64,000 bases of DNA from an uncultured virus (IMG/VR IMGVR_UViG_3300025133_000083) (Duplodnaviria > Heunggongvirae > Uroviricota > Caudoviricetes). The notes under the pieces are model-generated. The model searched no databases and was not told the DNA's origin. It was given only the letters and a program-made list of their open reading frames with translations. This document shows, piece after piece, positions 10,528 through 64,000 of this stretch. The stretch lies in the IMG/VR virus record IMGVR_UViG_3300025133_000083; one strand, given 5' to 3'. The position numbers were made by a program, and so were the translations under genes. Positions within the stretch are counted from its first letter, which is position 1. Every line of letters starts with the position of its first letter.

Positions 10528-10569
10528 AAAAAACGAAGCCCCAACGGAGGACTAATCCATTGGGGCTTC
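10528..10569 (-). terminator. Terminator between convergent genes
   Basis: Minus strand GAAGCCCCAATGGA/TCCGTTGGGGCTTC stem followed by GTTTTTT. Confidence 0.75.
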
Positions 10570-13504: not shown

Positions 13505-13507
13505 GTA

Positions 13508-13648: not shown

Positions 13649-13974
13649 TTCCGAACAGGTTTTTCACGTATAACAACCTTGTCGAATACTATCTTTTTCT
13701 CCAAATAGCCTTTCTTTACCCTGTAGTAAATAGCCTGTGCTGTATCGGGTCCCTTATCCTTCACCACCTTAACATCTTTCTCTATTGGTTTTGCATCCAA
13801 TCTAGGACGACCCATTGTAGGTGTATCTCCATCCTTACGAACCAAGACTTCCCTTTTAGCTATCTTCTCAGATATACGGTCTCTATACTCCCTCACGGAC
13901 ATCCATTCAGTACCACTTCCGTCATCCGAAAGGAATACCATATTCTGTCTTTTTTGTTTTTCGTCTTTACTCAT
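13645..13974 (-). CDS. Hypothetical basic protein, possibly DNA-binding
   Basis: K/R-rich with GRPR motif. Start set at MSKDEK, downstream of the minus-strand promoter element. Confidence 0.55.
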   Translation of the reverse strand: MSKDEKQKRQNMVFLSDDGSGTEWMSVREYRDRISEKIAKREVLVRKDGDTPTMGRPRLDAKPIEKDVKVVKDKGPDTAQAIYYRVKKGYLEKKIVFDKVVIREKPVRK

Positions 13975-13995
13975 TTCAATTACATTACGTTTAAA

Positions 13996-14003
13996 CAAAG
14001 TTA
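13996..14003 (-). promoter_or_regulatory. Bacteroidota-type -7 promoter element (TAACTTTG on minus)
   Basis: TAnnTTTG heading the minus-strand operon. Confidence 0.6.
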
Positions 14004-14072
14004 GACAAACTTTCTTTATTGAAAATGAATTTACTTTTCTTTATTAAAGAATTATTGCTTTACTTTAGCCGC

Positions 14073-38800: not shown

Positions 38801-40078
38801 AACCTGACAAAGGTGTTCTTTTCACCTAGAAATTGGGCTTCTCAATTCAAAACAGCCACTCCTTACGCATTCATTCACTTCGGTAAAATGAGAGCAGGGG
38901 CAGAGCCTTGGAGGACTTCTACAGCGCAGAAAATGGTATTAGGGGACCTAAGTAAGCGTGTAGCTTTTACTATGTCAATGCTTACGATGGCTGCTGTTTA
39001 CTTGAACAACGATGATGACGATGAAACAGGTGTAGAATTTGACCCTAGAAGTTCAGATTTCCTTAAAATCAGACTTGGAAGAATAAGAATTGATCCTTGG
39101 GGAGGAATGATACAGCAGGTCATATTAACAGCAAGGATGCTTATGGATGTTCTGCATGATGTAGACACAAAGGCAGGTTTAAAAGGAAGACTCAGTAAAG
39201 GAGGGATGAAAAAAGATGATGGCTCAATACTTCCTTTGGGAATGGCTTATAAAACAAGAAATAAATGGGAAGCAATGGAATCGATGGCAATAAACAAGCT
39301 ATCGCCAACCGCACACCTACTTTATGAATACCTTACTAAAAGTGAAGATGCTGAAGGTAATTGGGAAACCCCATACGGACAGGAGTATGAAATTCTAGAA
39401 AGCGTTGAACCATATCCTATATATTGGGGATTATGGGGGGAAGAGGAGTTAAATGTAATTAATGAGTTAAGGGAGGGCGACCCATCCGCACTTGATGGAA
39501 TGCTTTTATTCTACGCTTTCTTAGGGGGTGGTGTTAGTGTTTACGAGAAAAAGGACAGTAAATCCAAGAAGGGAGAAGCTGAAACAGCTTTGGACGAAGA
39601 AGAAACACGAATTTCAGAAGAAAGGAAAGCTATTAAGGATGAAGCTCTATCCAAGATAACCAATAGTGGTCCAATAAGAACCTCACAAGTAAGGGAGGAT
39701 GTAGCCGAAAAGCTAGAAAGAGACCTAAAGAAGGTCAACGGGAAGTCGGTTGGTTGGAAGTCCTTACGAAGGAACCTTGCAGAGAAACACAATGTATCTG
39801 TTTTTAGAAACGATTCTACGGTAGCGCCTCTATTGAATTCTTTCCTTACGGAGCCGCAAGAAGGTTCTGTTGGGTCCATAAGAGATATAAATACATTAGC
39901 CGCCAAGTATATTGACGACTTCCTTGATAAGGAAGATTATAAGGGTCCTTGGAAAATGGATGTAAAACATAGATCCGCCCTAAAGAAGCTCCTTAAGCAT
40001 AAGGAAGAAGCAGAAAAACAAGAGTTCATAAGGGCTGTCAATAAGTACATACGAACACATCCAAAAGCCAAGAAATGA
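26819..40078 (+). CDS. Giant polyvalent (probably virion-ejected) protein with zincin metallopeptidase domain
   Basis: 4419 aa. STPLHELSH...ERFARGFERYL metallopeptidase, long coiled coils, G/A-rich hydrophobic segments, C-terminal DPRSSDFLKIRLG...IDPWGG. Confidence 0.7.
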   Translation: MQDKQTWKPPTDAVVEEDAQWTPPTDALTKEDPEKKKTSPSSSQDGSDVLQASQESSSKEPQPEVQPEETQIEPEVADPDFIPTPDQPLEGLGGEARQPISVLQDPLEASRKVPEENPFKAFERIQGEREGLDKSHLSDAPAIDFGGKWAKAKEQKEEEISGKMSSSQAQLEKNLPKVNERLNEMFKEDFVIGDALSREFITKDTDGMDVPDAESLSEYAKEKAEEMGLPEDGYAWKHIWNKAKDHIAYKIIQPRVEKEAEAIYKEKHGTSIKDAGSSDEIAKYADIQGIQDKAILEFKSFQDEQLEQADQYANELVLNKYGAEPDEVVAQMNERNEQNMAAIEAQYGRFIQGEQFTGTEEQFAEYQEVNKQARQAYEQEFSEVLATLSSAEAEANRRYKRTVLAKGEEIERGMKSIMEDKRKLIDPLIQERIGDAYNQAYKKVAGDDENAKNLVERSFGENLTSTMTSAFSGSIKAMGTTFGNQRMQEWGDYMEKHYHIGDVNMEEWSDWLDLSKAARSTGNLIGTMGTSMIPAIAAGAVTGGLGASPFVSGMVASIAGFGGESSDLAGRMYDDTFRETGDAAKAAERSKMVFDSQMILAPTYMLEMLPVFGDLTTKFTKGLFSKVLLGAGIEYTTETFLQEFPQNSFEKAIREDEDLAKVFKHMTWASLEETAKNTVGVVFMGGAGQANQHFSEKLDDKAAEKKLKANAKTMAAKVALGRLSDNDAQQAILKMVAQKGVRFADAVISSTWQSGEITYEQAGPLLANVKTAESVIGKVREYNLSDVHSYVLSSMFLKHEKAEQEAEREKSGVIQKLKQKKAASIQADIDAMFSKGEAHYATLTYANGDFAVLTVDEARKKMKEEGFAKTFEEGDLKMEAFGPEAEQFAEELNAVLDVKEEAPKAKEKAKPTPEQAAERQETLKKREEAGIEPEVMKDAPKQIMNTVLDVAEGKPVSKQQAKSASDWLYKEFKKVKAMKGDENAPISQDKVQTYLDNLSSDIEALENYEQPKAEVKKEEKVELVKKKDENLTKEPVIKEKAEKVKQPSKSEKKTESVVEEKTKEEVAEKPKPTHTVKGEKVDAYDLGIVPKSSQSAADMGIKPVFSKVTKKEGLEVIDEKIDDQSKYISGLEKSLQKEKDEDAKYGSEGGGVKAFTSQLKEANGQLKELEGKKKEFLSRFKAEKPVAKPTPKKAEKKPEGAEKFKNEVFAEAKKQGIDPKDLNVEDIELTHNATIQNAEEYIAQYKKGEHGYQKKAEEKPTLQKGEVVKTVGLPKIVDGKLNPFLGIEGVVTDVSSEEVTIDTKKYGRISYYPKNLESVSKKPEAKKAPAKKEPKKKEAKKDPQIEAIAKDVSMKASDIRGLYQVARDIFGQTQDKALASAIVMDAMIGEMASREGISKEEMYDKIEFRKGDKDTEKALREGNEAIFQGKKEVEESKNLIAFHNLNALNVHNIDNIGGIPMPSLAVTKKDIPFESYGEISLIADKSMVDPKTGGRTFASDIYSPRYPSITYDANYKQLQKRFGQYESLLPENISRGTIHSLVSEIEERGLEEAHRNSLIQAAYLQETQGKLPRIKNVPKPKVSKALLEHYKKQKEEKGWYDSLDAQKDEEFQELWLDEQRKYYESKLGKEEGLDVFNSLYSDGIKHHAYHGIINKLSQAANPNIRQDELAFKRALEDKTTGNPLRERKFKKWIDNQFKDIDINEKLFTGYDRDGSRKYLNHTVENVMRILKKGDLRGGEAWNYGAGSLRSAVVPKFKSVQDIKDSENKLITDEEFEKIKDEANEALIDLAHKISKTNSRPNSNPFMETDRVTSIIEEAAKTGRYDFSEYGYNMTPELYQEVRDFLEKLRNMPTTYFESKPKRVVDLSEFKAALVPKNVDKKAEQILKDKGVKIVKYDQRKETGRKEALDKYIEKTKDILFQDDTTPEIWKSTAQEGLSKVQQKNATPEQWVKMIADKGGKGTLQELEWIGLSDFLNDWKKSNKAKSVPKEVVEQYIKDNQIEVVDVTRGKPEEKERATRGAISDIELVDDTWYVNIGETEITVRKFDAETENEAIDHALDEYNDEEYGPTVDNLANTKYSQYVLEGGENYREVLLTLPDVGLKAIGEYNSIYGDEQIFLKELNIPTEADRAKAKEFEDRLKEAKEKLPQDVAFQAGYAYSAKTQDDYISTHWDGQKNILAHLRMNERTLPNGERVLFLEEMQSDWAQGGKKDGFKRDLNQEEKDRIEEIEVEKGEILSNIPSLQYLKEILGSLDEMSEYNEYTKKSPAHKLRFMYSVIEPNMEMLQRRLEGKFMPEDEARERYMDNARGRVDYWFKNARSVPEVTDKQLLELFELYKKDATKQGTTKVFERGLGREDITINDLVEYDKIHEESLTIVFNADKANSVPDMPYKKTDQWVGMAMRRVMKMAAEQGMDRIAWVTGEQAADRFDLSKQIPYLQYDVVEDSDGNIDSYVLRVPNEGGAIQQELDLTESELESHVGKEVAQKIINQEGNINKDVKSVDGVLYGGKKLVGNDLKVGGEGMKAFYNSILPKVAKKEAQRFDKKARIEVVDMLNTDDMPIDTYAVPFDKAVHILQEIPNKESLKDGDWVISHKGEYVSTIPKNKAKTEDDALAQWVSTNMGTSEITKQPSKQLSIPITPEMRMNLNGAIPLFQGAQGAMLAEDGNYVIYALTDPNVSTPLHELSHVFEKYLSEDEVKKVLAWTGHRKWDTKTSERFARGFERYLKNGKAPTPQLQKIFDKFRSWLTDIYETVKNSEVNIPLNDDMIEIYSKMLGAEEVQSFVEEMEQRVADEKAADEKFAEEEAAKMDARAEEEAEELKSLKSSDEEMTKEDWIRENIKLTKGDVKKYADLKAWEESKQYYRGIVDWSSDKAQVDTAVEVLSGESGQDISIQDVIDWANGVAAERSTTGSTDKKIPAIKKRKQPTQKKAITNKTSVGDMLRKLSENVGGIKLDTDPRKARGFIIPPQLWNLAIAAAEKTLDLTATGADKTTEFVDFIVDFIKKSKEYRRAKHKKAISVRSSVLDKMGITQDEFDKMRKQATEIYKKQAKKEADKDLKTKLKDAKKETARLLKKYDAEEQETRRNYSPRMVDAGGKSVEKTVAGRRAYRGNIRDEVKDFLEGNGLDRIVVSQEERSVAATAFIDQFGENNAIEAVREYDVRGAQAASILAQTIKNIDQRMSELTATDVDELDRLSKKQADVIGIMDREAFTGGNFNSQLAYEYADADLGFNVDKIISKWEEDFSEEIPKDVEDKFRKWDEERQELKVQLTDAIKRAEAAEADAAIKNIRESVGRAKEGGKTYKAKAKDLAAQFRKLKTKPIKFRDADGNEITITENAIISWNDIIEIGAKAIELTGDIADGIKAMKDALADADWFTKLAKRDQDAVVQQLEDHFSADTAEEVVEEQGIKIPKAVIRELVEGGIDNIEDLVEAVKEFLIEDYPDVTDREIRDAITGYGKTVNMDKTEVGKEIRRLKEIGRIISQLEDVANKQRPLRSGAQRKPFTAEQKAEIRRLKRQLREAMKDLPIDSETEARQLATALDVAKNRLRNQIEDLDREIKEKKVATRKPRDLKGDAKLKQLTERRDALKAIHDETFKDDEKLTQQKINAAVSATKKSIDEYERRIKEGDLYPEKAPPLPETPELKALRAKKDKLKETLEAMRRAANPKRTEAQKALDRVNRSIEKVEERIAKKELTKRKKTPIVSAEISAAKKVLAEQRKLLRQMQEDAGIIEDRRLELAKNRVNSRIKDFERRLLTGDFSKREAKPLIQDTELAAIQGDLLRIKEEYEKAFYKRKLQNRTAGEIRWDRFWDGWALLRVIKATAEASFILIQGGTQTIAHPKNALKALKNSWDFFKSERHSEQWIRHIKSQEFYPVMKRSKLALTEPHAELKAREELFYSEWFTMVWNILGKPLNILGEKAYDKFVAANPVQAIERAAVGYLDTHRALRFLQVMEKLESEGKPFHGNEQEYKDVADVINTLTGRASLGKAELFSDNLTKVFFSPRNWASQFKTATPYAFIHFGKMRAGAEPWRTSTAQKMVLGDLSKRVAFTMSMLTMAAVYLNNDDDDETGVEFDPRSSDFLKIRLGRIRIDPWGGMIQQVILTARMLMDVLHDVDTKAGLKGRLSKGGMKKDDGSILPLGMAYKTRNKWEAMESMAINKLSPTAHLLYEYLTKSEDAEGNWETPYGQEYEILESVEPYPIYWGLWGEEELNVINELREGDPSALDGMLLFYAFLGGGVSVYEKKDSKSKKGEAETALDEEETRISEERKAIKDEALSKITNSGPIRTSQVREDVAEKLERDLKKVNGKSVGWKSLRRNLAEKHNVSVFRNDSTVAPLLNSFLTEPQEGSVGSIRDINTLAAKYIDDFLDKEDYKGPWKMDVKHRSALKKLLKHKEEAEKQEFIRAVNKYIRTHPKAKK

Positions 40079-40854: not shown

Positions 40855-40910
40855 CTACTCGTTTCTTATCGTTATTATGCTTTATTTGCTTTTGTTTAAA
40901 GTGAAACACA

Positions 40911-40918
40911 TATATTTG
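40911..40918 (+). promoter_or_regulatory. Bacteroidota-type -7 promoter element (TATATTTG)
   Basis: TAnnTTTG ahead of the second long non-coding region. Confidence 0.6.
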
Positions 40919-52674: not shown

Positions 52675-53235
52675 ATGGGAAGCATAAAAGGACAAAGACA
52701 TAATCCATACATACAAGGAAAATACGGACACCTAAACCCTAACGATGTAGTATTCACCCCCGATTGGTTAGCAAAACAAATCGTAGAGATGTTCCCCTTA
52801 AAAGGAAAGATCTTAGAACCCTGCAAAGGAGAAGGCGCTTTCCTGAAATATCTACCCGAAAACACCGATTGGTGCGAAATAACCGAAGGAAAAAACTTCT
52901 ACGACTACAAAACAAAAGTAGATTGGATAATAACAAACCCCCCGTACTCCGACTACAATAGATTCCTAGAACACAGCTTCAGCATCGCAGACAATATCGT
53001 ACTCCTTGTTCCCGTATCTAAAATGTTTAAAAGCATGGGTACTCTATCCGAAATATTCAACTACGGAGGATTTGTACAAATACACACCCTCCCAAGTAGC
53101 AAAGCAGGATTCCCTTTCGGATTCCCATCCGCTGTCTACTACATCAAACGAGCATACAAAGGAAACACACAAATAAAAATGCTTGACGGAATTACTTTCA
53201 AAAAAAGAAAACCCAAACCACCAACCCTATTCTAA
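52675..53235 (+). CDS. DNA amino-methyltransferase (second copy)
   Basis: DVVFTP, LEPCKGEGAF, ITNPPYS. Confidence 0.85.
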   Translation: MGSIKGQRHNPYIQGKYGHLNPNDVVFTPDWLAKQIVEMFPLKGKILEPCKGEGAFLKYLPENTDWCEITEGKNFYDYKTKVDWIITNPPYSDYNRFLEHSFSIADNIVLLVPVSKMFKSMGTLSEIFNYGGFVQIHTLPSSKAGFPFGFPSAVYYIKRAYKGNTQIKMLDGITFKKRKPKPPTLF

Positions 53236-54300
53236 ATCAAATAACCTATAACTAAAAACTTAGTTAATACCCATTTTACGGGGAAAACACTTCCTCCCCG
53301 TGCTTAACCCCCCGAAAAATAGGTCCACCCCAAAAAATACCCCCTACGGAGATAACCCTAAACACCCCCTCCCTATAAAGGAAGACCCCTATAAAGAAGA
53401 AACCCCCTACGGAGACAATCCTTAGTTGATACCCCCATTGAGGAGGAAAACCCCACAAAGGAAGAAACGTCTGAAGGGAATTCGCATGGACGGGCGATGC
53501 CTACCCTATAGATTTTATTTTTTTCTATCCGTCCAAAGCACCCCCCCTATGCGATTCCTGCTTCGGGAGGCTCCTGAGTTCTGTCCTATTGTGTGCTTCC
53601 TCTTCCTAGTTCGATCCCTTTGGGGAGTGACCTCTCTCGCGGTGTCTTCCTCTTCGGTGTCTACCTTGTGTGGGTTTGGCATATTTCGTGCTTGATTGGC
53701 TAACATGCACCTCTTCAGGTTATACTCTTAACACTGCACACTGACAGGGGTTACACCCGCAACGGGGCTACAACTACCGAAGATTGCCACATCTTCAGGG
53801 GTTACACCTGCAACGAATGCACACACAACAAGGGATAAACATCTACGTAAAACACGTAGAACAGTACAACACGCAAGGAGGTGAAATTCTTGCGGGGAAG
53901 CTCCGCCTCAAGGGTTGTATTGTGCTTGGAATATCTTGTTCCATGCTTAGAATACGACTACGTGAAACACGTACAACTTCCTACGTGAAACCCTTAGAGG
54001 CGCTTACACCTTCATAGACGAGTTCTGACGTACTATCTATCTATTACTATACTCTTATATCTATTAGCTCTAGTTATACGCGCGTGTTAAGCCTTATGAA
54101 GTGAATAAGCAAGCAATAGGAGGATTGATCTTCCTTTTTTTTCTTATGATGGAAATTGTATAGCTACGCAGGAGCCACACCGATAACTAAAACATTAGTT
54201 GATTATTACCTCTTAAGTGTAACGCAGGATGTTACACGTTGAAATTAAACGCCCTGATAATCAAGCACTTACACATTTATTTTAATTATTTCACTTTAAT
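53236..54300. other. Repeat-rich non-coding junction (candidate genome end/packaging or origin region)
   Basis: About 1.1 kb without a credible ORF. C runs, CCCCCTACGGAGA x2, CCCTATAAAG x2, CAGGGGTTACACCYGCAACG x2, local strand-skew flip. Confidence 0.5.
54118..54142 (+). terminator. Terminator-like hairpin
   Basis: AGGAGGA-TTGA-TCTTCCT followed by a T run. Confidence 0.55.
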
Positions 54301-54301
54301 G

Positions 54302-54334
54302 TTTGGAAGTATAGACATAGTTTGCCTATATTTG
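54302..54334 (+). promoter_or_regulatory. Consensus Bacteroidota promoter (TTTG -33, TATATTTG -7) for the small-gene array
   Basis: TTTG 54302-54305, 21-nt spacer, TATATTTG 54327-54334, preceded by an AT-rich tract. Confidence 0.75.
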
Positions 54335-54377
54335 ATGTAAGCAAACAAAGAGAAACAAACACTAATAACAAGAACAC

Positions 54378-54686
54378 ATGAAACATACAAGAGAGCAATT
54401 GCAAAAGGAATTCGAAGCAATAGACAAGATAAAGGTATTCGAAATAAGAGTAACTGACAGGAGGACAGGAGAGAATGATTATATCTTATTCGATATTACT
54501 GCCAACGATGAAGGATTGAGAGCCGAACACGTAGGACTAACAGTGAAAGAGGAAGACAGTAACAAGATAGCGTTCAAGCTCGAAAAGTGGGATGATTGTT
54601 TCAGCTTAGACGAACACTTACAAGGACTCTTGGAGACATGCACCAACGCAATACACGACAGTTCATTTTACTTACTAGCACCCTAA
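54378..54686 (+). CDS. Hypothetical protein (first of array)
   Basis: 102 aa, follows the consensus promoter. Confidence 0.65.
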   Translation: MKHTREQLQKEFEAIDKIKVFEIRVTDRRTGENDYILFDITANDEGLRAEHVGLTVKEEDSNKIAFKLEKWDDCFSLDEHLQGLLETCTNAIHDSSFYLLAP

Positions 54687-54699
54687 ACACCTAGAAAAT

Positions 54700-55044
54700 A
54701 TGAGAACCAAAGAGAAAGCAATAAGATACTTTGAGCAAAAGTTAGGGAACTTAACCTACCCAAGCAAGAACGACAGAACCGACCCCGAATACAGGAAAGC
54801 GTTAATAGCGGAAGCCCTGAAGAACCTAGAATTCGTGAGGAACGTTAAAGAGTACGAGAAAGACAACTTTTTCGAGAAGTTCCAAACGCTAGCCAATATC
54901 AAATGTACGCAGTCCTGCGGAGGACACCATAAAGGAATGATGAACGACAATCTGTACAAGAAAGAGAAAGTTAGGCTAGGGGAAGAACCATCTAACGACC
55001 TGCTGTACAGCTTCGGAATCTTCAACGGAACGGGAAGTTACTAA
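54700..55044 (+). CDS. Hypothetical protein
   Basis: CTAGAAAAT-ATG leader. Confidence 0.65.
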   Translation: MRTKEKAIRYFEQKLGNLTYPSKNDRTDPEYRKALIAEALKNLEFVRNVKEYEKDNFFEKFQTLANIKCTQSCGGHHKGMMNDNLYKKEKVRLGEEPSNDLLYSFGIFNGTGSY

Positions 55045-55066
55045 CCAACGATAAAAACTAGAAAAC

Positions 55067-55339
55067 ATGAGCATACCACAAATAGAAAACTTTACAAGCA
55101 GCAGGGGAAACAAAGTTCCCAACCAATTCAGAGTAATAACCAATGAAGGAAGCTACTTTAAATCGTATGAAACGATGATAGCGGCAAAGCTGAACAACGG
55201 TAAGATATTACTAGACAAGGATAATTGGAACTACTCCTCAACAACGGCAACTTACAGGAACCAATTCTTGGGGCTGACAACAAAGGAGACACAACAACAG
55301 ATTGAAGACGGAACAATAGAGCTAACCAATTTAAACTAG
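55067..55339 (+). CDS. Hypothetical phage protein
   Basis: Motif leader; FKSY...WNYSSTT...RNQFLG. Confidence 0.7.
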   Translation: MSIPQIENFTSSRGNKVPNQFRVITNEGSYFKSYETMIAAKLNNGKILLDKDNWNYSSTTATYRNQFLGLTTKETQQQIEDGTIELTNLN

Positions 55340-55344
55340 GAGAC

Positions 55345-55569
55345 ATGAATCGATTATATCCCGAAGGAATGAGCAAGCAAGAGATTGAAACACTTAGCAA
55401 AGCTTACAAGATACAAGAGAACCTGAAGCAGGTAAACGAATACCAATCAGAGATACACCCACTATTACACGACAAGGGAAGAGCTAACGACCACACAGAC
55501 TCTTGGAGGAAGATTGAACACACGCAAAAACTGATAAAGAGCTTAATACATGAACTCAAAAACTACTAG
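55345..55569 (+). CDS. Hypothetical protein
   Basis: CTAGGAGAC-ATG leader. Confidence 0.6.
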   Translation: MNRLYPEGMSKQEIETLSKAYKIQENLKQVNEYQSEIHPLLHDKGRANDHTDSWRKIEHTQKLIKSLIHELKNY

Positions 55570-55574
55570 AAAAC

Positions 55575-55730
55575 ATGAAGACGAAGCACACAACAATCTT
55601 AATTAATTGGAATTCTGAACGATCTATGAAGAGAGCAACGAGACTCAAGGCAAAGCTAGAGAACGCAGGAGCCACACTTATAAACACGATAAGCACACCG
55701 AACACGGCAGCATTTATATACCAACACTGA
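55575..55730 (+). CDS. Small protein (51 aa, not in ORF track)
   Basis: Exact motif leader; MKTKHTTILINWNSERSMKRATRLKAKLENAG... Confidence 0.65.
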   Translation: MKTKHTTILINWNSERSMKRATRLKAKLENAGATLINTISTPNTAAFIYQH

Positions 55731-55751
55731 AAACATAAACATCTAGAAAGC

Positions 55752-56027
55752 ATGAGAACAATCAAGGAAATAAAAGAGTACTGCGTACAAGTAGACCTAC
55801 AAAACGTTCTAGCAGGAGATAAGAGCATACAGGCGTATGATGGAGATAACCATATCCCACTCACAACAGAGAAAGAGATTCGGCTATTCTACATGAACGC
55901 GAACATCAAGGATCTACTTCAAATCTACGCTGAATACAATGGATTGAAATGCTACAAAAAAGACGAGCCTGAAGATTATGCAATATCATACGGCTTAGAC
56001 ATTATTGACCTGATACAAAACATCTAA
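55752..56027 (+). CDS. Hypothetical protein
   Basis: CTAGAAAGC-ATG leader. Confidence 0.65.
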   Translation: MRTIKEIKEYCVQVDLQNVLAGDKSIQAYDGDNHIPLTTEKEIRLFYMNANIKDLLQIYAEYNGLKCYKKDEPEDYAISYGLDIIDLIQNI

Positions 56028-56039
56028 AAACTAGAAAAC

Positions 56040-56720
56040 ATGAGCAGGATACACGATGAAACAAGCGAATTCTACAAAAGAGCATTGAAGAGAGCTAACG
56101 ACAACCTGATTAAACTACTTGACGACCCTAACGTGAAGGAGACCGACCTAACAGTAGCAGCGGCAAAGATTAAAGTGTTAGAGGACGAGAAGAAAGAGAA
56201 GGAGACAATTAAGCTACTTGAAAGGCACAACGAAGAACAGGACAAAAAGAGAGCAATGTTGAAACGAGTACTATCAATTCAACTTCCTGAAGAGGATATT
56301 ACTACGCAAGAGTCAACCATTCACGGAACCAAAATTCGTAAGCATCCTGAATTAATGAAGTTGCAGGAGGACACATGGAGAATCTACTTGACATTTGAAA
56401 AAGGAATGTACCCGAAGATCCAAGTAAACGGGGAATCAATTAACCTACTCAAGTATAAGAGCAACGGCTACACAGAAGACTCAAGCTACGAACCATTCGA
56501 GACATTTGAAGAGGCATGTAATTACAACGGTATTCAGTTCAAGAATCCGACCATAAAAAAGTCTCTTCAGAACATTGCAAAATTACAAGCTGAATCCGAT
56601 AAGATGAAGGCAAAGCTAGAGGAGTATAGCGAGAAGTGTAAAAAGCTGAACAGTTACACCTTAAGCAGTATTGGAGCCATAAGACAACAACAGAGACACC
56701 ACTACGAATATTTTCACTGA
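56040..56720 (+). CDS. Hypothetical coiled-coil protein
   Basis: Exact motif leader; 226 aa. Confidence 0.7.
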   Translation: MSRIHDETSEFYKRALKRANDNLIKLLDDPNVKETDLTVAAAKIKVLEDEKKEKETIKLLERHNEEQDKKRAMLKRVLSIQLPEEDITTQESTIHGTKIRKHPELMKLQEDTWRIYLTFEKGMYPKIQVNGESINLLKYKSNGYTEDSSYEPFETFEEACNYNGIQFKNPTIKKSLQNIAKLQAESDKMKAKLEEYSEKCKKLNSYTLSSIGAIRQQQRHHYEYFH

Positions 56721-56750
56721 AACAGGATAACACGTAAAAGGATAGGACAC

Positions 56751-56957
56751 ATGAGATATACAGGACAACAAGAACCGACACAACAGGAGAGAAAAAAAGG
56801 GGCTGAAGTAGTATTCACATACGAAACAGAACAGGGAGAGGTAAGAATAAAAGCTTGCGCATGTTACGAAAGTTGGGAACAGTGGGGAGCAACAACCGAC
56901 CAACTATACAAGAACGTTGAAAGAGTTGAAAATTGGAGACAAAACATAAACAACTAG
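56751..56957 (+). CDS. Hypothetical protein
   Basis: 68 aa; its stop codon lies within the next motif. Confidence 0.6.
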   Translation: MRYTGQQEPTQQERKKGAEVVFTYETEQGEVRIKACACYESWEQWGATTDQLYKNVERVENWRQNINN

Positions 56958-56962
56958 AAAAC

Positions 56963-57130
56963 ATGAAAAAATTAGAATTCAATATCAGTTACATGGTAAA
57001 CGGCACAAGGGAGATTGAACGCATATTTGCTAACAGTCATAGAGAAGCAACTACAAAGGCAAAATCTAAAGGTAAAGACGTTACAGTGACATACATTGAA
57101 AAGCCTACCGACCTACTTTATTTACACTGA
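56963..57130 (+). CDS. Hypothetical protein
   Basis: Start reassigned to the motif ATG. Confidence 0.6.
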   Translation: MKKLEFNISYMVNGTREIERIFANSHREATTKAKSKGKDVTVTYIEKPTDLLYLH

Positions 57131-57143
57131 AAAACTAGAAAAC

Positions 57144-57728
57144 ATGAGAACAGAAACGACAACAAGAACACTTTACAAGTTCAACGAACTTAGCGAAGAA
57201 GGCAAACAGAAAGCACTTGAAAACATGTACAACATAAACGTAGATCATGAATGGTACGAATTCATATTTGAAGACGCCAAAACAATAGGTGCATTGATAG
57301 GGATAGACATTGAAAAAATATACTTCAGTGGATTCTCTTCACAAGGAGACGGGGCATGTTTTGAGGGATATTACAGATACGAAAAAGGTTCAGCTAAGAA
57401 CCTGAAGGAACACGCACCAAAAGACAAGGAGCTGCATAGAATCGTAGAAGAACTTCAGGAGCTACAACGTAAGAACTTTTACGGATTGACTGCAAACGTA
57501 AAGCATTCAGGACACTATTCACATGAAAATTGCACGATTATAAACGTAGATAGCGAAACAGAACAGGAGATACCTGAAGACGAGATTGAAGACCTATTGA
57601 GGGACTATATGAGATGGATCTACAGAGTTCTAGAAAAGGAATACGAATATCTAACAGGAGACGAAGCAATTAAAGAAACGATTGAATGTAACGAGTACGA
57701 ATTCACTGAAGACGGAGAACAAGCATAA
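57144..57728 (+). CDS. Acidic phage protein of unknown function
   Basis: Start at the motif ATG; YFSGFSSQGDGACF and NEYEFTEDG. Confidence 0.7.
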   Translation: MRTETTTRTLYKFNELSEEGKQKALENMYNINVDHEWYEFIFEDAKTIGALIGIDIEKIYFSGFSSQGDGACFEGYYRYEKGSAKNLKEHAPKDKELHRIVEELQELQRKNFYGLTANVKHSGHYSHENCTIINVDSETEQEIPEDEIEDLLRDYMRWIYRVLEKEYEYLTGDEAIKETIECNEYEFTEDGEQA

Positions 57729-57751
57729 CTAACCATAAAAAACTAGAAAAC

Positions 57752-58036
57752 ATGAAAAAGGTAACAACACTATTGACGGCAGTATTATTAATCGCAACAG
57801 GAGCAACGGCACAAAACTCGACAAGAGGCAAGGACGGGAACTTTGCAGCCATTAAGACGGTAATAGCAGCCCACGACAGTACAACGACCTACACCTACAC
57901 CGACAACAAGGGAAACGTAGAACCCGTATTTGTAGGCAAGAGACACGCCTATTACCTAGCGAGAACAAGCAAACCAAGTAAACGAAACGGATACAAGGGG
58001 AAATATTACAGAAAGTACCTGAAGACGGACGACTAA
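57752..58036 (+). CDS. Secreted protein with signal peptide
   Basis: MKKVTTLLTAVLLIATGATA-Q resembles an SPI signal. Confidence 0.65.
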   Translation: MKKVTTLLTAVLLIATGATAQNSTRGKDGNFAAIKTVIAAHDSTTTYTYTDNKGNVEPVFVGKRHAYYLARTSKPSKRNGYKGKYYRKYLKTDD

Positions 58037-58047
58037 AACAAGGAGCC

Positions 58048-58284
58048 ATGAAAAACGCTAGAAAGTACATTTCACTTTGGGAAAGAGAGGAACGGCAAAA
58101 TAAAAAAGCTGAATACTACTCAATAGGATTGAACTACAACCCCGAAAGAAGGGATAATTGGCAAGATAAAGTCCTGAAGACCAACCAAGAGATGTATCAA
58201 CTAGAAAGCACCCTGACAACAGAAGAAAAGGAATACATAAACGAATACTACAACGTAGAAATATTTAACGACAAGGAGCTATGA
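58048..58284 (+). CDS. Hypothetical protein
   Basis: ACAAGGAGCC-ATG leader. Confidence 0.6.
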   Translation: MKNARKYISLWEREERQNKKAEYYSIGLNYNPERRDNWQDKVLKTNQEMYQLESTLTTEEKEYINEYYNVEIFNDKEL

Positions 58285-58478
58285 AATTTACAAGGATACA
58301 AGACCAACACACCCACGAAATAATTCAATACAGGGTAAACGACACAAGGACAACAAGAAGTGTTTACAATGAATATAAATGGAGATACGAGACACAAAAA
58401 AGGGGAGCTTATAATTGTTCACTTACAAGTAGGACGAAAACAGGCAACTTCAGGCACACACACTACATATCAATTTAA
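58281..58478 (+). CDS. Hypothetical protein
   Basis: ACAAGGAGCT-ATG leader, ATGA overlap. Confidence 0.6.
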   Translation: MKFTRIQDQHTHEIIQYRVNDTRTTRSVYNEYKWRYETQKRGAYNCSLTSRTKTGNFRHTHYISI

Positions 58479-58497
58479 CAGGATAAAACTAGAAAGC

Positions 58498-59100
58498 ATG
58501 AAAAAGGAATACGACATACTTACAACAGTAACAATGGATAGAGACAATTTTTTCGATTATATAACCGAAGGATTGATAGACCATCTACCTGCAAAGGTTC
58601 CACAAATAGAGAACAAGAGAGGTAAGAATAATTTCACGTATAACGGTAAGGACTATTTAATTGAAGCTTTCGACACGGAGATAGAATTAGTTAATAGCAT
58701 TGCACGTACATACAAGCAACCGACAAGAAACTACCGACTCAAATGTTTAAACGGGGAAAGTGAGATAGACGCCCTATCCTACGCAAGTACAAAAAGAGAC
58801 CTTGTTGATAGTATAAACTTCAACTTGAAAAGCCAATGGACTCTTCAGTATAAAAACGAAGCCCCTGAATTTTGGGAGCTTAAAACCCTGAAGGACTATT
58901 TAAAGAACACAACCGACAAGGAGAGAGCCGAAATATTTGAAACGGCATTGAATGAAATGGAATACGGACTCAAAAAATGGGATGCAATTATAAGAGCAAC
59001 AGGGTACTATTCAACACCTTCAGGTAAGCTAGTTAAAAACGACTACATACAAGAACACAAAAACAGGAGCCTAGAATACGCAATTAAGAACCTACTTTAA
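58498..59100 (+). CDS. Hypothetical protein
   Basis: Start reassigned to CTAGAAAGC-ATG. Confidence 0.65.
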   Translation: MKKEYDILTTVTMDRDNFFDYITEGLIDHLPAKVPQIENKRGKNNFTYNGKDYLIEAFDTEIELVNSIARTYKQPTRNYRLKCLNGESEIDALSYASTKRDLVDSINFNLKSQWTLQYKNEAPEFWELKTLKDYLKNTTDKERAEIFETALNEMEYGLKKWDAIIRATGYYSTPSGKLVKNDYIQEHKNRSLEYAIKNLL

Positions 59101-59111
59101 AACTAGAAAAC

Positions 59112-59504
59112 ATGATAACGAAAGAACACTACGATAAGAGCTATTTCTGTAAAGAATGGGCAGCAACCCCACAAATAGCAAAAGAGAAGCTTAGAGGCAT
59201 GTATGTACAAGCATGGAAGGAATATTTAGAAGGTAGCGAGAACGCCCAAATGGATATTGACGACCTGAAGGAGGACTACAAACTACTTCAGGTAGAAGCA
59301 CCCGAAGTTCTGTATCAACTAACAGATGAAGAAGCATGGAAACGGATATACGACAAGTTTGCTATTGACTTCTTGACCGCGCCAATAACATTCGACCAAT
59401 TCAGGGGAATGGTACAAGAGAAGTTTATCCTGAACGGAACCCAACAGTTAGAGCTTCAGGTTCAATGGGAAGATAAAGAGGAGATATTAACCGAAGAAAA
59501 CTAG
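59112..59504 (+). CDS. Hypothetical protein
   Basis: Exact motif leader. Confidence 0.65.
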   Translation: MITKEHYDKSYFCKEWAATPQIAKEKLRGMYVQAWKEYLEGSENAQMDIDDLKEDYKLLQVEAPEVLYQLTDEEAWKRIYDKFAIDFLTAPITFDQFRGMVQEKFILNGTQQLELQVQWEDKEEILTEEN

Positions 59505-59509
59505 AAAAC

Positions 59510-60361
59510 ATGATACCCTTAACATTCAACAACTTAGACAATTGGAGACACAACAGTCAGCTTTGGAATAAGTTTGACAACCTGAACCAAGAACAAGAAC
59601 ATAGACACGTACATTGGAACGAAAGCACCGATAGGTACAAGTACAATAGCAGCACAAGTTACAGGAACATTATGTTCAGTCACATAATGAAGGAGTACAG
59701 ATCCATGTTTGGGGTAGAGTACAACCAAGACGTAAAACACTATGGACACTACGACCTCTTCACACAAAAGAAGCTGAATGAAGAGGAGCGATTCCAACAA
59801 CGAGCGCAAGTATATATACACACTTCAATAAGTAGTATCCTAGATAATTGGAGTATTGAATTCACTGTAAAAGCTAACGGCTTTGAACAAGGCAGTAAAC
59901 GCTTCAACTTCACACCACGCAGCAATGCACCCCTAACAGAGGAGTACATAGTACAAGCAACCTTTGAATACATAAACAAGCACCTGATATTCCCTGAAGG
60001 ACTATTCAGGAACTTTCAAGAAGCTTTCAACGGCACAAAGGAATACGCCCTGAAGCAATACAGATTAGCGACAGAACAAAGAGCGCAGGATATAAAAAGA
60101 CAGGACAGGGAAGACAGGGTAAACGAATATATATTCAAACGCTTCAATATCGACATAGACTACGATCTGAATGCTACTGAAAAACAGATTATCGACAGGT
60201 GTAAAGAATTCACACGTATAAACGGTAAGCCTCAAGATACTTTGACACTTTGTCAATTCAGACCGCTATACATATTAGACGGCTTTGACGGGGATATTGA
60301 CGAAGTTGAAAGTCTACTAGACGAACATCTAACAGAAAACCCAACAGTTATTTACCTATAA
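59510..60361 (+). CDS. Hypothetical protein
   Basis: Exact motif leader; 283 aa. Confidence 0.7.
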   Translation: MIPLTFNNLDNWRHNSQLWNKFDNLNQEQEHRHVHWNESTDRYKYNSSTSYRNIMFSHIMKEYRSMFGVEYNQDVKHYGHYDLFTQKKLNEEERFQQRAQVYIHTSISSILDNWSIEFTVKANGFEQGSKRFNFTPRSNAPLTEEYIVQATFEYINKHLIFPEGLFRNFQEAFNGTKEYALKQYRLATEQRAQDIKRQDREDRVNEYIFKRFNIDIDYDLNATEKQIIDRCKEFTRINGKPQDTLTLCQFRPLYILDGFDGDIDEVESLLDEHLTENPTVIYL

Positions 60362-60373
60362 AAACTAGAAAAC

Positions 60374-60637
60374 ATGAAATTTGAAAGGAGCCTTAACGCA
60401 ATCGAAAAAGCATATTTGAAGCACGTAAATCTATGTAATAGCCTATTGAAAAGGATTGAACCGCACATTGAATACGACACAGAAGAGACGGAGTTCGGTA
60501 TTGGTTATCAAGAAAGTGATAGTTGCCACACGTTATATGATGACTATGGAAATGTCGCTCCCTTAGATTCGGTATTGCGAATAATTACCGACAACGGTAA
60601 AATAACATACAGCGAATTCCACGAACTATGTATTTAA
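60374..60637 (+). CDS. Hypothetical protein
   Basis: Exact motif leader. Confidence 0.65.
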   Translation: MKFERSLNAIEKAYLKHVNLCNSLLKRIEPHIEYDTEETEFGIGYQESDSCHTLYDDYGNVAPLDSVLRIITDNGKITYSEFHELCI

Positions 60638-60657
60638 ACACTGAAAAACTAGAAAAC

Positions 60658-60996
60658 ATGAAAGAGCAACTAACAGAACTACTCGAAATGCTGAAGACCG
60701 ACTCCAACTGCGATTGGTCGGTATGCAACCCGAATGATGAATTCAAAACCCTATCTGAAACAGTACGGGGAATGATAGACGGATACAACCCAAGAGAAGA
60801 GTACAAAAAAACAGGGTACTTTGGTCTACATTGGAGTACAGAAGACATAATAGGGAAAGCTAAAGAACATGGTCACACATGCACCGAAGAGCAAGCCCAA
60901 GAGATAGCTGAAGGACTAGAAAGCAAAGGAGATTGTAACTACGGGATAACTTGGGAACATATAGACATGGAAATTGCAGACTATTTTGGAAACTAA
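60658..60996 (+). CDS. Hypothetical phage protein
   Basis: Start at the motif ATG; WSTEDI...YGITW. Confidence 0.65.
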   Translation: MKEQLTELLEMLKTDSNCDWSVCNPNDEFKTLSETVRGMIDGYNPREEYKKTGYFGLHWSTEDIIGKAKEHGHTCTEEQAQEIAEGLESKGDCNYGITWEHIDMEIADYFGN

Positions 60997-61009
60997 AAAC
61001 CTAGAAAAC

Positions 61010-61291
61010 ATGAAACATACACAGGGAGAGTGGCAAGTAAAAGCAGACAATTCAGTAACGCCAAAAGATAATGTAGGCACTGTAATAGCTCAAATATGTA
61101 GCGCGAACAATAACGAAGAAGAAGCACAAGCAAACGCTGCATTGATAGCGGCTGCACCTGAACTATTGAAAGCATTGAACAGTCTTTTACATTGCCCCGA
61201 CTTAAATCTTTGTGAAATAGAAATCGAAACGAGAGAAGCAATAGACATAGCTGCAAATGCAGTCCACAAAGCAACAAACGTAAACGGATAG
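61010..61291 (+). CDS. Hypothetical phage protein (HTxGxW...ANAxLIAAAPELL type)
   Basis: Start at the motif ATG; motif recalled from many small phage proteins. Confidence 0.7.
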   Translation: MKHTQGEWQVKADNSVTPKDNVGTVIAQICSANNNEEEAQANAALIAAAPELLKALNSLLHCPDLNLCEIEIETREAIDIAANAVHKATNVNG

Positions 61292-61296
61292 AAACT

Positions 61297-61533
61297 ATGC
61301 AGGAAGACAACAGATATTGCAAAGGAGAGATACTACACACCCCGAAAGGAGAAAGTATCCCGAATACATTCAAATTCAGGTACGACCCCCACACCGACAC
61401 AATGCGAGTAACCGACATAAAAGGGGAGCTATTAATATTCACTAACCAAATGGAGCAAGTGAGTAAAGTGATAGACGACATGTACAACTTAGACGAAAGC
61501 AAACAACACCCGAAAGCATACATCTTAAACTAG
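61297..61533 (+). CDS. Hypothetical protein
   Basis: 78 aa. Confidence 0.6.
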   Translation: MQEDNRYCKGEILHTPKGESIPNTFKFRYDPHTDTMRVTDIKGELLIFTNQMEQVSKVIDDMYNLDESKQHPKAYILN

Positions 61534-61538
61534 AAAAC

Positions 61539-61718
61539 ATGGACTTATACACGCAACAACGAAACGCATCAAGAGAAGCAACTACTCTAACAAATGAAGG
61601 TAAAATACCATCATACGACCTACTGATGAAATGCAGTAAAGAACAGTTAAGTGAGAAGTTAATACACCACCTGAAGGTTATTGAAGCACTTAGAGAAATG
61701 ATAAAACGTAACGACTAG
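61539..61718 (+). CDS. Small protein (59 aa, not in ORF track)
   Basis: Exact motif leader; MDLYTQQRNASREA...; ends at the next motif's TAG. Confidence 0.65.
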   Translation: MDLYTQQRNASREATTLTNEGKIPSYDLLMKCSKEQLSEKLIHHLKVIEALREMIKRND

Positions 61719-61723
61719 AAAAC

Positions 61724-61984
61724 ATGAGCAAGCTAACAACAAGACAGCGAACAGGATCACTTTTGCAATACGCAAACTTCAAAGACGGTACTCGCATCAA
61801 CCTGATACGGATTGATAAACCATTGGAGGGATACAAAGCAAAGTTTTCAATTTTACAGAACCTCAACAACCCCTTTGCAAAAGATAAAACATTCAAAGGA
61901 ATCAATGAAGCTTCAAAATACTTTGAGCTTCTTACAGAATGTACCAAGTCTACACTTACCAATAGAGGAATAACAGCTAACTAA
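61724..61984 (+). CDS. Hypothetical protein
   Basis: Exact motif leader. Confidence 0.65.
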   Translation: MSKLTTRQRTGSLLQYANFKDGTRINLIRIDKPLEGYKAKFSILQNLNNPFAKDKTFKGINEASKYFELLTECTKSTLTNRGITAN

Positions 61985-61997
61985 AAAACTAGAAAAC

Positions 61998-62366
61998 ATG
62001 GAAAACACAGAAGAGAACAACGCATTGATAGCAGAATCTAGGGGATTCAAATTTGACCCACTCCGAGAGAAGTCTTGGGAAGACCGTATAGGTTGGAGGT
62101 ATGACGAATTAAAATTTCACACTTCTTGGGATTGGTTGATGCCCGTAGTTGAGGAATGTTTGGTAGGAGAAGCAGAACAAGGAGAACACGCAACTGGTCT
62201 TATAAAACAAATCTATGAAGGACTAAACAACATAGATATTAACGCCACGCATAGAGCAGTAGTAAAGTTCATCAAATGGGTAAACGACCAACTACCTAGA
62301 GAAGCCACAATAGTAATACATGACGGAATGATGTACAACCCTGAAAAACCTGAAGACGATGCCTAA
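61998..62366 (+). CDS. Hypothetical phage protein (FHTSWDWLMPVVE motif)
   Basis: Exact motif leader. Confidence 0.7.
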   Translation: MENTEENNALIAESRGFKFDPLREKSWEDRIGWRYDELKFHTSWDWLMPVVEECLVGEAEQGEHATGLIKQIYEGLNNIDINATHRAVVKFIKWVNDQLPREATIVIHDGMMYNPEKPEDDA

Positions 62367-62667
62367 ACCAAGCACCGAGAAAGCCAAAGTTCAATGGGTA
62401 TTGGAGAGATCCAAGAAGAGCAGGGATAACAACCTTGTTCTGTACAAGAACATCTTCAAACACTTCCTGAAGATAGACCTGAACAGTATTACAGGATACG
62501 ACCTACTGAAAGGTATAAAACATAAAAAGTATCCCAATTACGACAGCGTAACAAGAGCCTCAAGAAAGCTTCAGGAACTAAACCCCGAATTAAGAGGAGC
62601 CGAATGGGAAGCTAGACATGGGAAGCCCGTAGATGAAACAATTAAAGACCTGAAACAAAACTTTTAG
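62359..62667 (+). CDS. Hypothetical protein
   Basis: 102 aa; SVTRASRKLQELNPELRG. Confidence 0.65.
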   Translation: MPKPSTEKAKVQWVLERSKKSRDNNLVLYKNIFKHFLKIDLNSITGYDLLKGIKHKKYPNYDSVTRASRKLQELNPELRGAEWEARHGKPVDETIKDLKQNF

Positions 62668-62672
62668 AAAAC

Positions 62673-62891
62673 ATGGAAGCTAAGATTACAACAGTAGTAA
62701 CTAAAACAAAACGCTACGGGAGGACAACTCAACATACTCAATACCATATTTCAGGAGGTAGCCAAAACAACAAATATTTAACGTGTGGCAATAGATTCAA
62801 ATCTATTACAGGAGTTAAGAAGTGGCTATTGTCCATTGGGTATGATAAAGTGACCACAGGCAAGAAAGAAACAACAACATACAACAACTAA
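62673..62891 (+). CDS. Hypothetical protein
   Basis: TTAGAAAAC-ATG leader. Confidence 0.6.
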   Translation: MEAKITTVVTKTKRYGRTTQHTQYHISGGSQNNKYLTCGNRFKSITGVKKWLLSIGYDKVTTGKKETTTYNN

Positions 62892-62896
62892 AAAAC

Positions 62897-63142
62897 ATGG
62901 AGAGCAAAAAAACATACCACTACAAAGTAGCATTCCACAAATCATCAATACACAGAGTAGCATCTGTTGAAATAGACAACGGAGTAATAACCCTTAAATC
63001 TATCTTCTTAACAGATACCTATGCAACTGTAAAAGAAGCCTTAGACGAACTAAAAATAGACTTCAAATACATAGAGCATACCCACACAACCCGAACAACA
63101 ACAGAAAACGTAAACAACATAATCCAAGACAAGGAAGCATGA
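62897..63142 (+). CDS. Hypothetical protein
   Basis: CTAAAAAAC-ATG leader. Confidence 0.6.
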   Translation: MESKKTYHYKVAFHKSSIHRVASVEIDNGVITLKSIFLTDTYATVKEALDELKIDFKYIEHTHTTRTTTENVNNIIQDKEA

Positions 63143-63447
63143 AAATGAAAACGGCACATACAATAGAGGGAACCGAAATAGAATTGGATATTGCATTCGA
63201 CTACACCCCCGAAGAACCTGAAGTACGGTATTACAAAGACGGTTCAGGACAACCTGCAACTCCGCCCGACATCGAAATAACAGATGTTATATGGACAAGA
63301 GAAGACCTGAAGGTTGGAAGTGGATTGACATTCGAGAAGACTAAAACTCCCGTAGATGTATTCGAGCTAATGGACAAACTAGGACACATGGACGAGATTG
63401 AAAAAACCTGTTGGGGTATGATTGAGAACATAAACTTTGAAGATTAG
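63139..63447 (+). CDS. Hypothetical acidic protein
   Basis: ATGA overlap; RYYKDGSGQP. Confidence 0.65.
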   Translation: MKMKTAHTIEGTEIELDIAFDYTPEEPEVRYYKDGSGQPATPPDIEITDVIWTREDLKVGSGLTFEKTKTPVDVFELMDKLGHMDEIEKTCWGMIENINFED

Positions 63448-63452
63448 AAAAC

Positions 63453-63635
63453 ATGAAAAAAGAAAAGATCAAAAAACTTATCCTCGAAGAGGGACTTACA
63501 ATAACAGATGTAATTGATGTTGTTGTAGAAATGAACGGCTTTGTCGGAGTAGGACTCATCTCGCTTGGAGACGGTCTAAAGAAGTATGTTTACGACAAGA
63601 TAGAACAACACACACCTGATTATTGGAACACATAA
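63453..63635 (+). CDS. Hypothetical protein
   Basis: TTAGAAAAC-ATG leader. Confidence 0.55.
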   Translation: MKKEKIKKLILEEGLTITDVIDVVVEMNGFVGVGLISLGDGLKKYVYDKIEQHTPDYWNT

Positions 63636-63646
63636 AAACTACAAAA

Positions 63647-63997
63647 ATGGACAGAACAAGAATAACAGACACACTTGGAATAAGAGTTTCCAAATCAACA
63701 GCTAGAGGTTCAAATCTCGCATACTTTAGACCTGAACCTACACGGATCTTAAGAGGATACCCTAGAGAGGAAGCGGTATTCGAAATGATAGAAAATGATG
63801 ACGGAATATTAACAGCAGCAATAGGGGTTATACCTGAAACAAGCTCAAAAAATGGACTGAACTTCATCGAAAAACCGAATGGATGTATGACGGTGCAAGC
63901 CCCTAAAAAAATGATGTCGGTTGGAAGCTACATCATGCAATCTGAACCAATATTCGAAAAGGGGATTGATTGGTACTTACTTGAAAGAAAGCAATAA
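63647..63997 (+). CDS. Hypothetical protein
   Basis: Probable start MDRTR after AAAAACTACAAAA. Confidence 0.55.
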   Translation: MDRTRITDTLGIRVSKSTARGSNLAYFRPEPTRILRGYPREEAVFEMIENDDGILTAAIGVIPETSSKNGLNFIEKPNGCMTVQAPKKMMSVGSYIMQSEPIFEKGIDWYLLERKQ

Positions 63998-64000
63998 TGG

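Follow-up and report, generated by a model that had tools for sequence, protein, structure and literature searches.

A fixed sequence before the start codons of unrelated small genes in an array of an uncultured phage

The 64,000-nucleotide (nt) stretch analysed here at its full length (the window; IMG/VR record IMGVR_UViG_3300025133_000083, an uncultured virus of the Caudoviricetes) ends in an array of small, co-oriented and unrelated genes, and a short motif that includes the ATG start codon, CTAGAAAACATG, recurs at the starts of these genes. This recurrence is confirmed and highly non-random. With moderate confidence, we explain the motif as a standardised stop-and-restart junction of a long operon of accessory genes that does without Shine-Dalgarno (SD) sequences. 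A preliminary description, made from the letters and a list of open reading frames (ORFs), had offered three roles: a dedicated translation enhancer, a site for a phage RNA-binding regulator or endoribonuclease, or a microhomology common to the junctions that serves the exchange of cassettes. Of these, a function in starting translation has the strongest support, given the fixed spacing, the A-run, the A at -3 and the unstructured, AUG-depleted starts.

Distribution and anatomy of the junction

The window holds 14 copies of CTAGAAAACATG, all on the + strand and lying from 55058 to 61989, at exactly the sites reported in the preliminary description. The comparison with shuffled sequence that it had recommended gives 0.02 expected copies, with a maximum of one in 100 dinucleotide-preserving shuffles. 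The seven variant copies that it had named are also present. As it had further claimed, the ATG of every exact and listed variant copy opens an ORF (51-283 codons), and the downstream proteins are unrelated (no pair at E ≤ 1e-3 in an all-against-all blastp, n = 33). The motif is strand-specific and its spacing to the ATG has zero variance: in the 14 exact copies and all variants, positions -9..-1 of the + strand abut the start codon with a spacer of 0 nt.

A metagenome contig (L122) that is 100% identical to window positions 53667-64000 over 10,334 nt extends 6.3 kb beyond the window. It carries the array, which runs from 54378 to 64000 in the window, on to about 66020 and adds an exact copy and two variants to it. 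The counts below refer to the 33 array genes from 54378 to 66020, in the window and this extension, with gene models that are simple ORF calls using ATG starts only. At -9..-1 of these genes the 9-mer CTAGAAAAC is exact in 15 cases, has one mismatch in 6 and two mismatches in 4. At most two mismatches are thus found in 25 of the 33 array genes, versus 2 of the 55 other window genes, none of the 10 genes past the array and 3 of the 154 non-start ATGs within it. The sole further exact copy of the 9-mer, at 37512, lies inside an ORF of 4419 codons and is not followed by ATG; in the 64-kb window the full motif does not occur upstream of structural genes, in agreement with the preliminary description. 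The array genes lacking the motif mostly have purine variants in the same register (e.g., CAAGGAGCC, CTAGGAGAC and ATAGGACAC), and GGAG or GGA is present in only four to five variant junctions. Past the array, L122 has motif-less genes, including one for a PD-(D/E)XK nuclease.

The conserved block is longer than the preliminary description had it. It has the form A-run(-14..-10)-CTAG-AAAAC-ATG with sharp edges, and the full consensus junction is AAAAACTAGAAAAC-ATG. Positions -14 to -10 are A in 23, 31, 22, 24 and 25 of the 33 genes, in that order. They are followed by C at -9 (26 genes), T at -8 (27), A at -7 (31), G at -6 (30), A at -4 (32), A at -3 (28) and C at -1 (25). Position +4 is A in 24 genes, and past the ATG nothing but a general bias towards A is seen. 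On the other side conservation stops abruptly at -14: similarity between junctions in -34..-15 is at the level of chance (two pairs with at least 12 of 20 shared bases, versus a null mean of 1.8). An impression of junction subfamilies of 24-27 nt likewise did not exceed chance. The suggestion that the motif itself is under selection is backed by these sharp edges and by the fact that some conserved letters seldom occur in start regions of the host-like kind.

Read directly, the consensus TAAAAACTAGAAAACATGA contains a stop codon in all three frames (TAA, TAG, and TGA within ATGA). The gap to the upstream stop codon is 5 nt in 10 of the 33 junctions, where the stop is the motif's own TAG (9) or TAA (1). 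It is 11-13 nt in 11 junctions, where TAA or TGA adjoins the A-run, 19-23 nt in 5, 30 nt in 1, and 92 nt in 1, which contains a promoter-like site. The four overlapping starts (-1, -4, -8) all lack the motif. A -1 frameshift heptamer, A_AAA_AAC, was dropped as a candidate, six A's being seen by eye in two junctions only.

All sites are on the + strand. The full junction is found at 55053..55069 (exact motif from 55058), 56026..56042, 57130..57146, 57738..57754, 60360..60376, 60644..60660 and 61984..62000. In the second of these the upstream stop is a TAA at -15..-13, in frame with the next ATG, and in the third the similarity to a relative's contig from DNA run X3 is lost upstream of 57136. 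The exact motif also lies at 59103..59114 and 61001..61012 and, with its TAG as the upstream stop, at 55566..55577, 56954..56965, 59501..59512, 61530..61541 and 61715..61726. The variants are CTAGAAAAT-ATG (54691..54702), CTAGGAGAC-ATG (55336..55347, TAG being the upstream stop), CTAGAAAGC-ATG (55743..55754 and 58489..58500), TTAGAAAAC-ATG (62664..62675 and 63444..63455, TAG being the upstream stop in both) and CTAAAAAAC-ATG (62888..62899, TAA being the upstream stop). The preliminary description was right about the TAG stop in the seven junctions where it had named one (the five exact copies just listed and the two TTAGAAAAC variants), and the same holds at 55337-55339 and 61289-61291. The three TTAG variants are grouped at the distal end of the array (62664, 63444 and window-equivalent 64590).

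The probable operon and its translation starts

A regular-expression scan found a promoter-like site of Bacteroidota type, TTTG-N22-TATATTTG, at 54302..54334 on the + strand, which puts it 44 nt ahead of the array's first gene. Two more, nearly identical to it, are present at 40885-40918 and window-equivalent 64522-64555 (10856-10889 of L122), the latter in the only long gap of the array. All three fit the -33/-7 promoter consensus of Bacteroidetes, TTTG/TAHHTTTG (PMC6847099), and they mark the starts of transcription units; TAnnTTTG also stands immediately upstream of several late genes. From 54378 to 64506, which covers 30 genes, we found no internal promoter-like site and no + strand terminator-like site, and these genes therefore look like one host-transcribed operon. 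The promoter type supports a Bacteroidota host, as the preliminary description had implied, but not Flavobacterium in particular.

In the explanation that we favour, one long polycistronic operon of accessory genes would have standardised junctions between its cistrons, in a Bacteroidota host that starts translation without SD pairing. Each junction would do two jobs. It would terminate the upstream gene, by means of the stop codon in each frame of TAAAAACTAGAAAACATGA, and it would provide an unstructured, A-rich and AUG-free landing site, with A at -13/-12 and -3, the ATG and an A-rich second codon. A ribosome that terminates there, or one that newly binds, could then start the next gene without SD. 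We infer that the junction raises or equalises the translation of internal cistrons.

Several features of the starts agree with published determinants of translation in Bacteroidia. Translation in Flavobacterium johnsoniae is raised by A at each of -3, -6, -12 and -13, and an A-run occupies -14..-10 of the EF-Tu leader (PMC6847099). The A-run of the motif is placed exactly as in that leader, and the A at -3 also matches. The start windows (50 nt, n = 33) are nearly unstructured, with a mean minimum free energy of -0.78 kcal/mol and a median of 0, versus a mean of -4.86 kcal/mol in 400 random array windows (Mann-Whitney p 7e-16). The unpaired share of the block -14..+3 is 0.71, versus 0.54 in random stretches. 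AUG depletion near starts is a trait of Bacteroidetes (PMC6847099), and across the 33 genes there is no extra ATG in -20..-1, where about 0.32 per gene (about 10 in total) would be expected.

We compared these starts with a host-like set of 165 start regions, taken from 20-kb stretches around ribosomal-protein operons in five Flavobacteriaceae genomes, which were arbitrary picks from a 16S scan. The host-like regions show A-richness at -14..-11 and a purine at -3, and a frequent pattern among them is stop codon + GAAA + 1-3 nt + ATG (TAAGAAA-N-ATG, TAGAAA-N-ATG). On a weight matrix built from them, the full AAAAACTAGAAAAC leaders lie between the 84th and the 96th percentile, and the median score is 3.44 for the array versus 0.77 for the phage late genes.

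A number of observations weigh against the favoured explanation. Three letters that are among the most conserved in the motif are in the minority in the host-like set: C at -9 (14/165), G at -6 (26/165) and C at -1 (18/165). In the published reporter experiments, changing A to G at -6 cut expression in F. johnsoniae by 40% (PMC6847099), and G is the letter that the motif has there. The 12-mer occurs at background frequency in 401 Flavobacteriaceae genomes (which may not include the host), with about 0.5 copies per genome, at least one copy in 138 of them and never more than five, and a plausible gene start was seen at only two to three of 10 sampled copies. Early genes of phi14:2, a cultured crAss-like phage of Cellulophaga (n = 61), are only loosely A-rich, with no position above 0.26 bits, and the window's own late genes are only loosely A-rich as well. 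The arbitrary choice of comparison genomes must be counted here too. The identity of C-9, T-8, G-6 and C-1 is not accounted for by host preference.

These counts bear on two further ideas. The background counts and the few copies at starts led us to reject the motif as a common host start context for the sampled genomes; the 11-mer TAGAAAACATG has 30 copies in five genomes, versus 17 for its reversed control. A general feature of crAss-like phages was rejected on the 61 phi14:2 starts.

Why the junction is so uniform

The loose A-richness in phi14:2 indicates that a fixed sequence is not needed for translation in the phylum, and the exactness of the motif therefore requires a second cause. TAG used as a stop accounts for T-8, A-7 and G-6, in nine junctions only. 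The non-A letters could reflect this use of TAG in the nine junctions together with the spread of a single junction as genes were inserted at existing ones. The exactness is probably maintained by such copying, by a specific reader of the sequence, or by both, and either would be compatible with a stop-and-restart junction.

Copying, the better of the two candidates, is a tentative one. Here the uniformity would stem largely from recombination: genes would be gained, lost and swapped as cassettes at the 14-17-nt junction, which would serve as the microhomology, insertion into a junction would duplicate it, and serial insertion would lead to the same junction throughout the array. The same direct repeat does stand on both sides of every gene, the genes are unrelated, and the three TTAG variants cluster distally. 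In the X3 relative (one contig), the start of a gene similar to that at 57144 lies behind ...AAAAACT-AGAAAACATG, with unrelated sequence upstream; since the contig shares the start of this gene but not the sequence before it, the similarity ends at the motif. An IMG/VR contig (L362) has, on its reverse strand at 5054-14066, a phage array of about 29 small genes that is unrelated to the window array. Adjacent, non-paralogous genes of L362 have identical junctions that fall into separate families (TAAACAACAAGAACA-ATG three times, AAAAAATAGAAAAC-ATG twice), and these look like local junction duplication. However, there is no extended homology beyond -14 (the two pairs, versus 1.8 by chance, given above), and recombination alone leaves the fixed register of the ATG, the A-run at the enhancer position and the lack of structure unaccounted for. 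The array also has no indel, variant or rearrangement in four other DNA runs, save one doubtful 93-nt skip (62161 to 62255, in a single contig of run X6). No integrase family was found in PHROGs among 58+29 proteins, and there are no cassette-type hairpins.

Wider scans for such arrays gave few cases. An IMG/VR scan for a two-copy pattern returned five loci, and among these a comparable array exists only in L362. The 17-mer was found at 82 IMG/VR loci, none of them with an array and none with more than three copies, and the 14-mer scan returned single copies only, among the matches listed. We also observed a small-gene array with a different and weaker start-adjacent motif, (T/A)AATC-ATG, in an IMG/VR contig (L121/G001) that has a 34% relative of an array gene; TAATCATG has eight forward copies there versus two for the control. 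In the 401 Flavobacteriaceae genomes, the sole place with two motif copies close together is a contig of genome G050 (locus L345, 4553-4788) that ends in a 163-nt tandem repeat, each unit of which begins AAAAAACTAGAAAACATGAGAGCA and opens a 36-codon ORF.

The other candidate for the second cause seems to us rather unlikely, less so than the alternatives below. The motif would be an operator for a phage-encoded or virion-delivered RNA-binding repressor or endoribonuclease, by which about 25 cistrons would be jointly switched off or processed; the junction could be a start site at the same time. Specific recognition is suggested by the invariant C-9, T-8, G-6 and C-1, for which the host has no preference, and the confinement of the motif to one temporal or functional block of genes and its sharp conservation edges point the same way. 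Such a factor, be it an RNA-binding protein or an endonuclease of the phage or virion, or else a contact with the ribosome, could conceivably read the invariant letters and make them a master switch by which the roughly 25 cistrons are turned on, silenced or processed together in a host that does not recognise SD. Phage T4 offers examples in RegA, a repressor that acts on start regions, and RegB, by which early leaders are cut at GGAG. A factor is likewise suspected to bind the start-associated sequence (SAS) of cluster K mycobacteriophages (PMC3203893). A candidate nuclease is the PBECR5 RNase-type domain (PF18814, E 8e-25, aa 1425-1625; a Barnase-EndoU-ColicinE5/D-RelE-like nuclease domain) in the 4419-aa ORF (26819-40078), and nothing links it to the motif. 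No known RNA-binding or nuclease family was found among the 33 array proteins in Pfam and PHROGs searches that also covered four proteins downstream. Near-matches inside genes are tolerated, in that the array has nine 9-mers with one mismatch and does not avoid them, and the one L362 array contains several junction families, for which a single factor would not account. A dedicated reader, if it existed, would make the junction the first start-site operator with sequence specificity to be described in a phage of Bacteroidota.

Two further alternatives are unlikely. That a phage RNA polymerase uses the motif as its initiator or promoter, so that each gene gets its own very short-leader or leaderless mRNA, has very little to recommend it. 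The late promoter element TAAATG of poxviruses, which overlaps the ATG, is a precedent for the fixed distance. Moreover, the early promoters of the virion RNA polymerase that crAss-like phages carry are undefined, and the available account of phi14:2 describes early transcripts without a common upstream motif (bioRxiv 10.1101/2020.03.07.982082). However, the array has a host-type promoter immediately in front of it and a second one in its single long gap, 10 junctions have a motif that overlaps the stop of the gene upstream, and the early genes of phi14:2 have no such motif. Nor is the polymerase itself apparent in the window: the catalytic motif DFDxD was not found in any of its large ORFs, the 4419-aa one included, and no PDB relative of that ORF was found by sequence.

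The idea that the motif pairs with the 3' tail of the host 16S rRNA, as a substitute for SD, is the least probable of all. AGAAA(G) is the complement of the terminal CUUUCU and CTAGAAA that of the tail with the two genomic bases after it, and the variant CTAGAAAGC lengthens the pairing. The 16S tail of F. johnsoniae reads ...ACCUCCUUUCU-3' (PMC7797042), and among 120 Bacteroidota-type 16S 3' ends (L215-L334) the sequence after ...CCTCCTTTCT is AGAG in 67, giving ...CCTTTCTAG, and GGAG in 41. Yet the mature F. johnsoniae 16S rRNA ends at C1543-U1544, leaving therefore only five A-U-rich pairs; bS21, bS18 and bS6 keep its tail sequestered, and SD sequences are ignored by the ribosomes of Bacteroidia (PMC7797042). 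Positions -7..-3 are far too near the ATG for SD geometry, and in 44 full-length Flavobacteriia-type 16S genes no other conserved site is complementary at eight or more of the nine positions.

Genome context and comparison with known systems

Judged by its proteins, the window may be called a very divergent crAss-like phage. It encodes a portal protein (phrog_6547), a DnaB-type helicase, a resolvase, an endolysin-like gene and a 1583-aa protein that matches the crassvirus muzzle family PF25731 crAss_MUZ (E 1.7e-22, C-terminal part of the profile only). The product of the 4419-codon ORF is probably a polyvalent virion or ejection protein. For these two giant proteins the sequence search gave no PDB relative; this and the lack of DFDxD are why we do not claim a virion RNA polymerase of the crAss type. 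Relatives are scarce. INPHARED gave no match by megablast of 54000-64000 or by tblastn of the portal, the IMG/VR protein scans gave none for two late proteins and one for a single array gene (34% identity, in L121), and a metagenome scan returned the same phage (L122) and one weak match. Neither a tRNA nor an Rfam family was found in the window.

Some other features lie nearby. The array is preceded by about 1.1 kb of non-coding sequence (53240-54370), with C-rich direct repeats (e.g., CCCTATAAAGGAAGA and ACCCCCTACGGAGA), two copies of CAGGGGTTACACC(C/T)GCAACG, and hairpins CTACGT-N5-ACGTAG at 53843 and 53958 (another is at 52620). Breaks at 53611/53667 occur in independent assemblies, and for 53612-53666 an alternative sequence was observed. 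The region may serve as an origin, a packaging site or a genome end; in phi14:2 a similar location is taken up by non-coding regions with high transcription. The same upstream string, CTAACGCCTAAAAAAA...TAAGAAA, precedes two consecutive late genes, at 6839-6868 and 8230-8259, and forms a second and smaller family of repeated leaders. Two ORFs, at 11195-11782 on the - strand (194 aa) and 52675-53235 on the + strand (186 aa), match the same DNA methyltransferase family (phrog_799).

The choice of start codons without SD is only partly understood in Bacteroidota, and a single exact 14-17-nt leader shared by about 25 unrelated genes is a natural and portable candidate for a strong start or restart element, of use in expression tools for the phylum. 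As the sequence is defined, its non-A letters can be mutated singly to ask what is read besides A-richness. It and the junction families of L362 together point to standard junctions as a possible general route by which phages build and reshuffle accessory arrays.

Other phages also have short shared elements at the starts or boundaries of early genes, such as the RegA and RegB sites of T4 and T4-type PeSL junctions, which relate to joint control or gene shuffling. At the window junctions we found no regA- or regB-like gene, promoter or stem-loop. Cassette junctions of the PeSL type (promoter plus stem-loop) or the integron type (attC hairpin) combine a structured junction with a dedicated recombinase, unlike the window junctions, which are unstructured and promoter-free inside the array, with no integrase family among the 58+29 proteins. 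In the full-text literature the letters of the motif returned only unrelated uses among the matches listed (e.g., MS2 hairpin constructs).

Closer parallels come from translation in the phylum itself. The SD-independent, 'Kozak-like' starts of Bacteroidia (Baez et al. 2019, PMC6847099) have in common with the array the A at -3, -12 and -13, the A-run, the low structure and the absence of AUG; of the features compared, only A at -6 is at odds, G being present there in 30 of the 33 genes. Host start regions are degenerate, whereas 15 of 33 array genes are identical over 9 nt and have minority letters at C-9, G-6 and C-1. The array also resembles systems of termination-reinitiation coupling, in which stop and start are 5-23 nt apart or overlap on co-oriented genes of one transcript (Huber et al. 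2019, PMC6728339). Bacteroidetes couple translation without SD (PMC6728339). Coupling as it is known requires no fixed sequence, and the conserved block of the window is an addition to it.

The closest analogue is the SAS of cluster K (PMC3203893), to which the preliminary description had already pointed and which resembles the motif in orientation, position and restriction to non-structural genes. Both are short and asymmetric, stand in one orientation shortly before the ATG of many unrelated genes and keep to the genome's non-structural part. The SAS is rare in the host genome; the window motif has about 0.5 copies per genome in the 401 Flavobacteriaceae, among which its host may not be. In both the SAS and the window motif, the upstream stop codon sometimes lies inside the element, and letters are conserved beyond what pairing with rRNA would explain. 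The two differ in sequence, the SAS being GGGATAGGAGCCC, with the SD core AGGAG, and the window motif AAAAACTAGAAAAC, without an SD core. The SAS has a variable spacer of 3-7 bp whereas that of the window motif is invariably zero, and SAS copies are scattered over half the genome whereas those of the window are packed in one operon. Inverted repeats of 17 bp (ESAS) stand upstream of about half the SAS sites; the window array has no room for them because its gaps are 5-30 nt, nor is there conservation beyond -14. The likely host phylum of the window ignores SD, unlike the setting of the SAS, whose function a 2025 account still describes as unverified (PMC12699233). The window motif is therefore SAS-like in its working but not a member of the SAS by sequence, and it extends the phenomenon of the start-associated sequence from actinobacteriophages to a marine phage that appears to be crAss-like.

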